Below are positions 60,401 through 63,400 of a stretch of 64,000 nt of DNA, piece after piece. A program made the position numbers. This DNA comes from Escherichia coli (GTDB lineage Bacteria > Pseudomonadota > Gammaproteobacteria > Enterobacterales > Enterobacteriaceae), in assembly GCF_003991155.1 (NCBI RefSeq), contig NZ_CP031297.1. One strand, given 5' to 3'. Numbering within the stretch: position 1 is the stretch's first letter; the number at the start of each line of letters is the position of its first letter.

Positions 60401-63400
60401 CAGCTCGACACATGGCCCTTGCTGGGTACATCACAAAAATCATCATGATCGAGACTGGCCTGACCTACAAACAGGTCAGACGGCTTTACCAGGATCTGGA
60501 GAGGGACGGATATACTCTGGAACGAAAATCCAGAACTTTCCGGGGTGGTGCGACACTGATTCATAGTCACACATCCAAGATACAGGCCTCTCTTCTAATG
60601 CAGCTCTACTTCAACATTGGTGGAGAAGCCGTGTTGCGGTCTGTGAACATCAAAGCCTTGAACAAGGCATTTAGAATGTATCACGCAATCCGCAAAGAAG
60701 TGCCCGGAATGAAAGGTGCTCGGTGGGCTCCGTTTGATATTACTGATGCCTGGTGTCTTGCTTCGGAGCTGAGAAGTGGGGACGCAATGCTGGAGGTGTG
60801 CGACAACTGCAAGTGTACGTACTTCACCTCTGTTAATCAAAGAACCTGCGTTGAATGTCCGTTCTGCAAAGAACAAGGAAGGCATGGTGGTGGGGAGAAA
60901 GAGTGTGCTTGAGTAGACTATGACATTTCGGACCAGAAGATGAGCGCCCAAACTTTGCGGCGCTCATTTTTTTACTTCTTCTGTGGGATACGGTAGCGCT
61001 CCAGCTCGACAGCTCCCAACCCCTTGAAAGCATCCGGGCGACGTCCTTGCCCACTCCACGAAACTCCGTCTTTTGAATATTTAGCATTATCAGGTTCTGA
61101 TCTGCTCGTGAACATTTCGTTGAGCAAGCCGATGTCCACACCGCAGGATTCCATGTCGCTCATTATTCGCTCAGCCTGAGCTCGCTTTTCTTTTTCTTCT
61201 TCTTCTCGCTTTTTGTACTCTTCCTCCAGTTCATTGAGAACGCCCTTCATTCTGTCAATGATCTCCCGAACTTCATCTAACGGGAGTCCTCGCAACAGGG
61301 TGCGAATGCGGCTTTTACGCTTTAACTCTGCGATTATTAACTCTCTACGTTCAGCCGCTGATAGCGTAGAGAACTCCTCGTGGTCTTTCATGTCATACGG
61401 AGCCCATCAGTTTTCCTTTAAGTGAATCACGTTGAGAGTTCAGTTTTGCGTCAGTCTGCACTGGCGAATTTTGATGCTGTGCAGGTTGACTCTCTGAACT
61501 CTGTTGCTCAAAAGACCCAATGTTGCCAGAAAATCGAAGAGAATAAAGACCCAATAGAGCAAGGGCGCGGAGCCGATCACTACGCGCCTTATGCTGCATC
61601 TGGGACAGTTCACGATAGAGCTCCGGAAAGGCTTGCTCCGATATGTTCAGATTAGATATTTTTCCATCCCATTTGCTACCAGCCACAACGACCTCCTATC
61701 TATCAGCCGCAGAACCAGAAGCCCCTGGCATTGGATGCCACGGATTCGTTGGGCAGTACGATCCTGCTCTTAGGGAAAAGCTCCTTGGCCGCATCTTGGT
61801 AAGCCTCGGCACCGCCGCCAGCCAGCAGAACTACGTCAGCATCCATCCCGTCCTCACGCATTGACTTCCGCATAGGGATCAAGGCGTTTTGAGCGACTTT
61901 GGTTGAGGCTTTCTTGAAGTAGTCTTTGATCGATACCTTTTCACCGTAGAGGAAGATTTCGGCCTTACCGGCACGAATAGCTTTCTCGATCTTTTCGATG
62001 CCAGGGGCACCGCCGTGGTCTTCCTGAATTAGCCGGTCCGTTTCCTGTAGCAACACCGACATCGCCTTGAGGCTGGTGCCAGATGAGTGATAGCGGACCT
62101 CTCCCTCTTCAAGAGCTACCCAGTCTACAGAAAAGAACCCAGGGTCAATTACAACGGTTTTTCCTCCCTGGATAATCTCCAGGAGGTCTTCATCTTTGGT
62201 TGAACTTACAACATCCATGTAAGCACCGGCAGGTTGAGGTACAACCACGACAGACTTAACCGCTACCGATCGTTTTGGCGTGATCTGGTGTTCGCCCTCA
62301 AGCCGAGCTTTCAACGCCTCTCTGCGCTCTACGTCCATGTACTGACTAACAGGCAGGCCAGTCACCAGCACATCGATCTCCTTCTGCTCGGACATCAGGA
62401 GTGCAGCGTAGAAAAGAGCCTTGTATGGATTGGTCGAAGGATAGTCGCCGTGAAGCTCACGCTCCCATCCTTGCAATCGGTCAGGCTCGACGCCTGCAAC
62501 CCATTTCTCTCCATCAATCACAACCTGAATGCAGGTCCCTGCACCGCCAGTTAACTGTTGTGGCATCAGTTCCAATGGACCTGCCCCCACCGGCATGACG
62601 ACTGTGCGAGCTTCCTCACCTTTATACCCCATTGCCATTTTCAGGTTGGAGTAACCAATATCCAAACCCAGAACAAATTGACTCATGAAATCCTCCAAAG
62701 ATTGCTTTTAGATTGCTTTTCGATTGCTTGCCGCGTGTTGGATAGAGAATAAGGCTAAAAGCGGGGACAGATGGCCTGTGTAATTGCCCAAAAGGGGCAT
62801 ATAGGTTGCTTTTCGGTGGCTTTTTGATCGTTGAGTAAGGGAACCTATGGGAACGCTGCACGGATAGGCTCAGATAAACAGACCTTACCCTCGCATCGAG
62901 AACCGCTTGCCCTCCAGCATCGAGAGACGGTGGTAAAGAGGCATTTGGAATCTTTGATGCCATATCCAATATATCTGGAATCTTTACATATAGATTCATA
63001 TTTAAAGAGGCTGTGAAAGAATAAGAGCATCAAGATTCCAGATAGATAGAGGGAAATTTGACAAATTCCAAAGATGGGTTAGCCTAGTGACAGAACTAGA
63101 TTCCAGTATTGGAATAATCAGCTTTAAATTCCAGATAGATAGTTATGTGGATAGGAATTGGATAGGAATTGGGAGGGTATTGAGGTGAGTCTACCAACAG
63201 AGCGATGGCTAGATCTGCTAGATCCGAAGCTCGAAGAAGAACGATCCGAGATAACAGAGGATCTGCTAGAGGCAGAGGGACGAGAGTTTGTTGCAGAGGT
63301 ACGGAGCAAACTGGATCACGCCTTAGCGGTTCTTGCTGTCGAGGCGCAGCAGGAAGCGGACATGTACTGGAACGCGCACAAATCAGCGCGTGAAGAAGCG

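Follow-up and report, generated by a model that had tools for sequence, protein, structure and literature searches.

The type II (ParMRC) partition system of plasmid R1 relies on parC, a set of 11-bp direct iterons arranged as two blocks of five that flank the constitutive promoter of the parM-parR operon. The operator and centromere roles of parC coincide. The adaptor gene lies just downstream of the gene for the actin-like ATPase, and the adaptor combines a ribbon-helix-helix (RHH) N-domain, a linker and a C-terminal peptide. The orthologue of the locus described here is srpMRC of the SXT/R391 elements, in which srpM and mobI are divergent and oriT is located towards mobI (Carraro et al., 2015; PMC4489591). 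There, too, centromere-like repeats occupy the 5′UTR of the actin-like gene, transcription starts from an FlhDC-type activator-dependent promoter, and the small adaptor, SrpR, does not resemble classical ParR in sequence. Its binding site is srpC, within the srpM 5′UTR, and stabilisation requires srpC; in EMSA, the srpM-proximal fragment was bound specifically and the oriT fragment only non-specifically (PMC4489591).

The transfer origin of IncA/C plasmids was mapped by deletion and mobilisation assays on a sequence apparently identical or near-identical to the one analysed here; the oriT reported for R55, R16a and pVCR94 shows no material difference from it (Hegyi et al., 2017; PMC5587640). 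In R55, R16a and IP40a, oriT was shown to act in cis for mobilisation by an IncA/C helper, with TraI and MobI required, and attempts to map the nic site for this oriT family failed (PMC5587640). MobI, a factor essential for transfer, recruits the relaxase TraI; it binds the MIBD domain of TraI and sets oriT-mobI selectivity.

The DNA examined is a stretch of 64,000 nucleotides (the window), in which 60.9–64 kb matches the conserved backbone of IncC (IncA/C2) plasmids at 100% identity; by sequence comparison, about 960 IncC plasmids are 100% identical across the region. IncC plasmids rank among the main vehicles of multidrug resistance, with blaNDM and blaCMY among the genes carried, and SGI1-type interference targets their oriT-mobI module, which makes the region medically relevant. 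The gene order is acaC, acr2, a parR-like gene, parM, an intergenic region of 498 bp and mobI, with parM and mobI divergent; RefSeq annotation and Pfam agree on mobI, ParM/StbA, H-NS (acr2) and FlhC (acaC). The genes that matter here are:

61393–61686, minus strand: parR-like adaptor gene (vcrx151 position), 97 aa; GTG start preceded by AGGAGG
61703–62686, minus strand: parM (stbA, vcrx152), actin-like partition ATPase; ATG at 62686; RefSeq ParM/StbA family protein; Pfam ALP_N E = 1.2e-33, MreB-like_C E = 2.1e-10
63185–63724, plus strand: mobI (vcrx001); GTG start preceded by GGGAGGG; RefSeq; Pfam MobI E = 3.8e-31

A first-pass annotation of the window had placed two distinct repeat arrays between these divergent genes, some 250 bp apart. 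Both are present where it put them, exceed chance expectation (TRF, repeat and site counts), lie about 215–250 bp from each other and differ in function; the “hypothetical gene at 63158” that it listed is mobI, with its GTG at 63185. Taken as a whole, the best explanation, in which we place good confidence, is that the parM–mobI intergenic region of the IncC plasmid holds two separate cis-acting modules: a parM promoter bracketed by iterons and a conjugative transfer origin. The repeat clusters thus fall in an already well-studied region and the finding is largely ordinary: oriT, the mobI promoter PmobI, the AcaCD box and the parMRC assignment are already known, and published experiments cover oriT function, the mobI promoter, the AcaCD box and the parM transcription start site (TSS). 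The additions made here (the iteron proposal, conservation evidence, a ParR fold argument and the concerted evolution of oriT boxes) are modest and should not surprise a specialist.

The parM-side module extends over 62699–62835 and is composed of the following elements:

62699–62731, minus strand: block 1, three tandem 11-bp iterons, in parM sense GCAAGCAATCG AAAAGCAATCT AAAAGCAATCT; proposed parC-like centromere/operator
62738–62751, minus strand: promoter P152; TSS at 62738–62740 (5′-RACE, literature); putative -10-like TATTCT at 62751–62746, from the sequence
62775–62803, minus strand: motif for AcaCD, the FlhDC-type master activator, at P152; near-palindromic core TGCCCAAAAGGGGCA at 62785–62799
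62804–62835, minus strand: block 2, degenerate iterons GGTTGCTTTT C GGTGGCTTTT (62804–62824) plus a weak third copy, GATCGTTGAG; TRF period 11

The regulatory positions derive from pVCR94ΔX, where 5′-RACE placed the TSS at 120126–120128 relative to a vcrx152 start at 120074, and ChIP-exo and MAST placed the AcaCD motif at 120163–120191 on the negative strand (Carraro et al., 2014, Table S3). These coordinates were transferred to the window by a fixed offset, which also fits acr2. A sigma-70 promoter and terminator scan of 62600–63260 found nothing; it is uninformative here because PmobI has a poor -10 element and P152 is activator-dependent.

As the first-pass annotation had it, three tandem iterons adjoin the parM start, the array ending 13 nt from the ATG. 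The copies, GATTGCTTTT at 62700–62709, GATTGCTTTT at 62711–62720 and GATTGCTTGC at 62722–62731, repeat with a period of 11 bp (TRF score 55), the third being imperfect; the 64-kb window has six exact GATTGCTT sites, and these copies supply three of them. Block 1 corresponds to +8 to +40 of the parM 5′UTR and adjoins the Shine-Dalgarno sequence GGAGG at 62692–62696. Block 2 is located directly upstream of the AcaCD motif, at approximately -64 to -85 relative to the published TSS, so that the blocks lie on either side of the box; its first copy is an exact GATTGCTTTT in the divergent IncC plasmid pN069. This degenerate set at 62804–62824, with the same 11-bp period, and the flanking of the AcaCD-activated promoter by iterons were both overlooked in the first-pass annotation.

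The arrangement is maintained across lineages. Block 1 is conserved in IncA, divergent IncC, Aeromonas and Vibrio relatives; the motif AAAAGC[AC][AT][CT]C is found at both block positions in five plasmids whose ParM identity falls as low as 76%, and each of the five A/C-like plasmids compared has an iteron-like copy adjoining the AcaCD box on its upstream side. In IncC and IncA, 104 bp separate the blocks, against 93–94 bp in the Aeromonas and Vibrio relatives, a spacing that approximates an integral number of helical turns. Between the box and the ATG lie 98 nt in four of the five relatives; the Vibrio relative has 108 nt. Some relatives have just one iteron on each side, the minimum seen, which is thin for a centromere. 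In an IncT relative, an unrelated gene follows parM, and a different array of about 12 copies is found upstream of it. Elsewhere in the window, AcaCD-like boxes lack the AAAAGC flank, and we therefore reject the idea that the iteron is a piece of a generic extended AcaCD site.

The locus shares two features with type II ParMRC systems: an actin-like ParM ATPase gene stands beside the repeats, and direct repeats with a period of about one helical turn (3 + 2) are found upstream of parM, overlapping the promoter region. The first-pass annotation suggested that one array is probably the centromere, and the parM-proximal iterons are indeed the best parC-like candidate; they probably serve a minor partition system as its centromere. 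Since the degenerate pair abuts the AcaCD box, the iterons flank the AcaCD-dependent promoter, and an operator role besides the centromere role is therefore likely. As in R1, 11-bp direct iterons form two blocks around the promoter and the adaptor gene is just downstream of the ATPase gene, but the iterons number 3 + 2(3) rather than 5 + 5 and the promoter between them is AcaCD-dependent rather than constitutive. Compared with srpMRC, the repeats differ in kind: those of SXT are 13-bp repeats, direct as well as inverted, of the AAGTGCTCTAACGG type, whereas those of IncC are 11-bp direct repeats, AAAAGCAATCN. The 13-bp motif bound by SrpR was not found in the IncC iterons, and the SXT probes share no motif with AAAAGCAATC. 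By analogy, the IncC iterons may work like srpC while belonging to a different sequence family. This base-level proposal for IncC parC iterons bracketing the AcaCD box is a modest addition of the present analysis.

The candidate reader of the iterons is the “hypothetical” 97-aa protein encoded at 61393–61686, which the first-pass annotation took to be ParR-like. Its conserved N-domain (residues 1–52) is joined by a variable linker to a C-terminal peptide, LKGKLxGSV, that is likewise conserved, the same build as R1 ParR if the predicted RHH fold is correct. Sequence searches are silent: the protein has no Pfam or NCBIfam match, a PDB profile search returned 0 matches at E ≤ 10, and it was not retrieved as an SrpR homologue. 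Nor is sequence homology to R1 ParR detectable (hhalign probability 0.6%, with an R1 query sequence that matched the pB171 StbB structure 2jd3). Foldseek gave no match in the PDB for a monomeric AF2 model, after which the N-domain was modelled as a linker-fused dimer; the RHH-dimer fold predicted in this way matches single-chain RHH proteins, and the predicted β-strand residues are conserved between lineages. This fold-level argument suggests a ParR-type adaptor. We infer that the protein would bind the iterons (three in the 5′UTR plus the two or three that lie directly upstream of the AcaCD box) through its predicted N-terminal RHH dimer, and that the complex would be linked to ParM filaments by the conserved C-terminal peptide; the bound protein would be expected to auto-repress the parM promoter.

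Alternatively, the iterons could serve solely as a transcriptional operator that tunes the AcaCD-dependent promoter, read by the ParR-like protein or by another regulator, e.g., the H-NS-like Acr2, with no segregation taking place there. Their placement would suit this role, as they bracket the AcaCD box and cover the transcript from +8 to +40, the upstream copy adjoins the box in five of five relatives, and the box-to-ATG distance is held at 98–108 nt; the single copy per side in some relatives would suit it equally. Operator and centromere functions are not exclusive, however, being combined in R1 parC, and an intact actin-like ParM together with a conserved adaptor C-terminal peptide is hard to explain without filament coupling. 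The main partition function of IncC belongs to parABS plus ORF053, and the Tn5 screen cited in PMC10954446 did not flag parMRC as essential (non-mutable), which would fit a purely regulatory role; against this, the SXT homologue stabilises mini-F only when srpC is present (PMC4489591). On balance, we regard a role confined to transcription as unlikely, though it is the most serious competitor of a combined centromere and operator. The dominant parABS system sets IncC apart from srpMRC, and it bears out, for the major function, the reservation in the first-pass annotation that partition might map elsewhere; the arrays themselves are real.

It is far less probable that the iterons act in RNA, as an A-rich unstructured leader or a protein- or Hfq-binding element that controls parM translation. 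They are transcribed within the 52-nt 5′UTR, and this leader folds worse than 200 of 200 shuffled sequences (z = +2.4), as might a region selected to stay open for ribosome loading; yet the motif also occurs upstream of the promoter, outside the P152 transcript, at a position conserved in five plasmids, its 11-bp period is that of DNA helical phasing, and it has no Rfam match. Across 62500–63400, the sole Rfam match was a meaningless miRNA-like one to the oriT inverted repeat (E = 0.36), giving no support to a structured RNA element.

The second array lies on the mobI side, and here the elements are:

62943–62984, no strand assigned: two ATTCCA-type boxes, ATTTGGAATCTT at 62943–62954 and CAATATATCTGGAATCTT at 62967–62984, the latter an inverted long-box copy
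63001–63185, plus strand: fully functional IncA/C oriT (R55 139–323), AT-rich, 31–37% GC (PMC5587640)
63032–63049, plus strand: long box AAGATTCCAGATAGATAG, direct repeat of 63126–63142; conserved in all A/C-like relatives
63058–63092, plus strand: mobI promoter within oriT; -35 TTGACA at 63058–63063, -10 TAGCCT at 63080–63085, main TSS at about 63091–63092
63089–63162, plus strand: core oriT (R55 227–300), with hairpin, long box and first 14-bp direct repeat (PMC5587640)
63100–63115: core oriT hairpin ATTCCAGTATTGGAAT, predicted on both strands
63126–63142: long box AAATTCCAGATAGATAG in core oriT
63148–63172, plus strand: two overlapping 14-bp direct repeats, TGGATAGGAATTGG, with an 11-bp period (TRF; sequence search)

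This array is the oriT of IncA/C plasmids, overlapping the mobI promoter. The -35, -10, TSS and GTG served as landmarks for mapping the R55 coordinates, together with IncC records beginning at window position 62863, to within about 1 bp. All published oriT landmarks are present, including the 14-bp repeats, the hairpin and the PmobI hexamers; the GC trough of 31–37% fits the reported AT-richness (about 37% GC), and the array ends at 63172, immediately upstream of mobI (63185) and facing the divergent parM side. PmobI was identified by primer extension and a lacZ fusion, with the TSS 93 bp upstream of the GTG, and deletion of both 14-bp direct repeats abolished transfer (PMC5587640). The single-stranded core is not significantly more stable than shuffled sequences (z of about -1.3), while its left part, with the 16-nt inverted repeat, reaches z = -2.3. 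The first-pass annotation had offered the divergent gene or a second DNA-binding protein as what this array might serve; it was right to relate the array to both and missed its identity as oriT (PMC5587640).

Of the 23 ATTCCAR sites across the whole 64 kb, seven are clustered within 190 bp (62945–63134), on both strands, against about 0.07 expected there; the window has two exact copies of the 12-mer CCAGATAGATAG, at 63038 and 63131, and an inverted copy with two mismatches lies at 62967–62978. In an alignment of IncC, divergent IncC and IncA, the boxes are 94% invariant and the spacers 58% (Fisher p = 2e-11), and both PmobI hexamers are invariant across the three lineages. Aeromonas and Vibrio relatives preserve the CCAGATAGATAG arrangement, two direct copies plus an inverted one. 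The bases on the 5′ side of the CCA core shift in concert within each plasmid, reading ATT in IncC, TTT in pKAM497 and TAT in the pAQU-like plasmid; this concerted evolution of oriT boxes between lineages is another modest addition. Beyond the earlier description (Hegyi et al., 2017), the sites form one seven-member ATTCCAR family, and two conserved boxes (62943–62984), invariant islands amid diverged flanks, lie to the left of the functional oriT boundary, corresponding to a stretch (R55 97–139) that is dispensable for mobilisation (PMC5587640).

That the ParR-like protein instead uses the ATTCCAG array, or both arrays, as its centromere is highly improbable: the array is larger and more elaborate, with direct and inverted copies, the boxes at 62943–62984 are conserved yet have no role in mobilisation assays, and SrpR did shift the SXT oriT fragment, but non-specific DNA competed SrpR away from oriT and not from srpC (PMC4489591), the array is functionally mapped as oriT, and the box flanks vary by lineage while the iteron motif and the predicted β-strand residues of the ParR-like protein stay the same.

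The mobI-side module (approximately 63001–63185, with two conserved boxes reaching back to 62943) brings together AT-rich DNA, the ATTCCA/CCAGATAGATAG boxes, a short hairpin, the overlapping 14-bp repeats and the mobI promoter. We infer that MobI reads the ATTCCA boxes; once bound, it would contact the C-terminal MIBD domain of the MOBH12 relaxase TraI, bringing TraI to the site for nicking and the start of transfer.

A bolder pair of proposals, which we hold only tentatively as a pair, links activation and specificity to the two arrays. First, the iterons astride the AcaCD box would mechanistically couple centromere loading to the activation of conjugation, the ParR-like protein antagonising or cooperating with the master activator at P152; if so, the type II system would segregate the plasmid only in transfer-competent cells. 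Second, the seven ATTCCAR boxes, including the two outside the functional oriT, would be MobI operator sites that set oriT specificity, and the TraI nic region would fall in the invariant CCAGATAGATAG/GGATAGGAATTGG part. The copy number of the 14-bp repeat varies in nature, with a three-copy variant present in pPROV084.

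Between 60900 and 64000 the DNA matches the conserved backbone of conjugative IncC (IncA/C2) resistance plasmids with 100% identity; 964 PLSDB records match it at ≥99% identity. Gene calls, based on the pR148 RefSeq annotation with ORF and Pfam checks, give the following order:

60355-60912, plus strand, acaC (FlhC family)
60972-61391, minus strand, acr2 (H-NS-like)
61393-61686, minus strand, gene for a 97-aa "hypothetical" protein, with AGGAGG ahead of its start
61703-62686, minus strand, parM/stbA (vcrx152; ALP_N, E = 1.2e-33)
63185-63724, plus strand, mobI, GTG start (Pfam MobI, E = 3.8e-31)

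The first-pass annotation was correct in observing two repeat arrays upstream of parM; the finding spans the entire 498 bp that separate the divergent genes parM and mobI. Its interpretation was half correct: a centromere role is plausible for the parM-side iterons, and the link of the other array to a second protein or a divergent gene was right, but the larger array was not recognized as the known oriT (PMC5587640), nor the iterons as flanking a known activator-dependent promoter with a mapped transcription start site (TSS) and AcaCD motif (PMC4207636). The divergent gene that it called hypothetical and placed at 63158 exists, but is mobI with an over-extended start. A 125-aa minus-strand ORF (62622-62999) spans the parM start, iterons, AcaCD box and part of oriT; some RefSeq records, e.g., pPROV084, annotate a shorter form as a hypothetical protein. 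Such an ORF, lying over regulatory DNA, is probably spurious.

The mobI-side array is the known, mapped oriT. The reported ATTCCAG-based cluster is borne out, with seven of the 23 ATTCCAR sites of the window falling inside 190 bp, on both strands. The exact 12-mer CCAGATAGATAG is found only at 63038 and 63131, with an inverted copy carrying two mismatches at 62967, and two overlapping copies of TGGATAGGAATTGG occupy 63148-63172. A single IncA/C oriT was mapped directly upstream of mobI, in a region of ~37% GC: full activity requires R55 139-323, with a 70-bp core at 227-300, no transfer occurs once both overlapping 14-bp direct repeats are removed, R55 97-139 and 323-353 can be omitted, and the mobI promoter (-35 TTGACA, 16-bp spacer, -10 TAGCCT) lies within oriT and has its main TSS 93 bp ahead of the GTG (Hegyi et al., 2017; PMC5587640). 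All published landmarks are present in the window (TTGACA 63058-63063, TAGCCT 63080-63085, GTG 63185), and GC content drops to 31-37% across 62950-63150. R55 mapping, for which several IncC records starting at 62863 provide an extra anchor, places the full oriT at ~63001-63185 and the core at ~63089-63162, accurate to ~±1 bp. In pPROV084, a natural variant, the direct repeat is present three times, which has also been reported for R16a.

MobI is essential; according to a 2025-26 preprint, it interacts with MIBD, the C-terminal domain of the MOBH12 relaxase TraI, and decides which oriT-mobI module TraI processes. MobI, made from the promoter inside oriT, would multimerize on the ATTCCA-type boxes and bring TraI to oriT through MIBD; TraI would then nick within or close to the essential direct-repeat/hairpin core. 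Two ATTCCA-type boxes at 62943-62984, one repeating the long oriT box in inverted orientation, are shared by all A/C-like relatives and fall outside the mobilization-required region (R55 97-139 was dispensable in Hegyi's assays); they may have a regulatory role, e.g., MobI autoregulation or looping.

Beside parM, TRF and a repeat finder confirmed the 11-bp array at 62699-62729 (2.8 copies, 95% match), in which copy three (GATTGCTTGC) is imperfect; of the six exact GATTGCTT sites in the 64 kb, these tandem copies account for three. TRF also detected a second 11-bp array, overlooked at first pass, at 62804-62824 (GGTTGCTTTT C GGTGGCTTTT). In pVCR94ΔX, vcrx152 starts at 120074, its 5'-RACE TSS is at 120126-120128, and the AcaCD ChIP-exo motif spans 120163-120191 on the negative strand (Carraro et al., 2014; PMC4207636, Table S3). 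A single offset, which fits acr2 and vcrx152 alike, places the TSS of the parM promoter P152 at 62738-62740 and the AcaCD motif at 62775-62803, with a near-palindromic core TGCCCAAAAGGGGCA at 62785-62799; a -10-like TATTCT is read at 62751-62746. The mapped TSS thus puts the three iterons at +8 to +40 of a 52-nt parM leader, and the degenerate pair begins one base past the AcaCD motif, at ~ -64 to -85. The AAAAGC flank is absent from other AcaCD-like boxes within the window, which rules out the iteron as a component of the activator site. Iteron blocks likewise flank the operon promoter in R1 parC, a type II centromere, whereas the IncC promoter between the blocks requires the conjugation master activator. 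The iterons are unlikely to act instead as a structured RNA element in the parM leader, which is argued against by the unusually unstructured leader RNA (z = +2.4) and by the motif copies upstream of the promoter.

In an alignment of the window with pN069 (divergent IncC, 85% identity) and p9546 (IncA, 82%), the iterons, AcaCD box, each ATTCCA/CCAGATAGATAG box, both promoter hexamers and the 14-bp direct repeats are conserved while the spacers diverge; in the oriT stretch, 94% of box positions are invariant vs. 58% outside boxes (Fisher p = 2e-11). pN069 has a perfect GATTGCTTTT as its first upstream iteron, and its third 5'UTR copy is likewise perfect. The divergent mobI/parM arrangement is retained in more distant plasmids, including Aeromonas pKAM497_1 (ParM identity 79%) and a pAQU-like Vibrio plasmid (76%), both of which carry AAAAGC[AC][AT][CT]C in the leader and at the upstream edge of the AcaCD box. 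AcaCD box-to-ATG spacing is nearly constant (98-108 nt), and the distance between the two iteron positions is 104 bp in IncC/IncA and 94 or 93 bp in the Aeromonas and Vibrio relatives, near whole numbers of helical turns. Two direct and one inverted copy of CCAGATAGATAG in oriT are common to all A/C-like relatives, the bases 5' of the CCA core varying in concert per plasmid (ATT in IncC, TTT in pKAM497, TAT in the pAQU-like plasmid). The IncT plasmid pZ26CR2253_NDM (ParM 35%) differs, with an unrelated downstream gene and a different array upstream of parM: ~12 T(T/C)GAATGA copies at positions 1600-1800 of that plasmid, spaced roughly 11-12 bp. It resembles an extended parC-type array followed by another kind of adaptor gene (193 aa).

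A non-repeated block between the iterons and oriT (62845-62880, GGGAACGCTGCACGGATAGGCTCAGATAAACAG) is almost invariant in IncC, divergent IncC and IncA, with diverging DNA on either side. It holds a GGATAGG core resembling the 14-bp oriT repeats, and TTGGATAG, also found at the P152 TSS (62738-62745).

The 97-aa protein has 53 homologues, all unnamed and none with Pfam domains. In their alignment, the N-domain (WDGKISNLNISEQAFPEL…RSDRLRALALLGLYSL) and a C-terminal LKGKLxGSV are conserved while the ~30 residues that link them vary, the same domain logic as in ParR adaptors. Sequence methods detected no relation to known ParR proteins, as likewise reported for SrpR (PMC4489591). The AF2 monomer is an extended segment followed by two helices (pLDDT 66) and found no Foldseek match; a linker-fused N-domain dimer was predicted as β-α-α ×2 in only one of five models (pLDDT >90 in folded parts, pTM 0.72). 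There is moderate support for this N-domain being an RHH DNA-binding dimer. The pVCR94 table would place vcrx151 at 61446-61655, out of frame with the 97-aa ORF. The latter is what RefSeq annotates and is preceded by a strong Shine-Dalgarno sequence; the original vcrx151 model may be mis-framed.

The SXT/R391 srpM-srpR locus is orthologous and laid out as in IncC, with unlike repeat sequences. In its 615-bp srpM-mobI intergenic region, srpC adjoins srpM inside its 5'UTR and oriT adjoins mobI; the SrpR shift of srpC resists competitor while that of oriT is non-specific only, mini-F stabilization needs srpC, srpR and srpM, all three, and the IncA/C locus was termed a "putative" ParMRC-like system (PMC4489591). 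In the mechanism proposed for IncC, AcaCD activates P152, and the ParR-like dimer would cooperatively occupy the 11-bp iterons that flank this promoter, forming a partition complex captured by ParM filaments and also shutting off its own promoter. The substance of this finding is already in the literature, although no paper in the library searched defines the IncC iterons themselves. What is added is small: a parC proposal at the level of iterons, the case for an RHH fold, and the box flanks that vary in concert.

Over the whole window, only six TRF rows score ≥50, two of them inside the parM-mobI region. Two arrays of ~4 copies each of a similar 9-bp unit (AATTACCGT at 28703-28739; TAATTATCG at 33629-33666) are separated by 5 kb within the transfer/backbone region, and two-copy tandem repeats are found at 21291-21337 (24 bp), 38075-38110 (18 bp) and 48598-48638 (21 bp), with TRF scores of 51-66.
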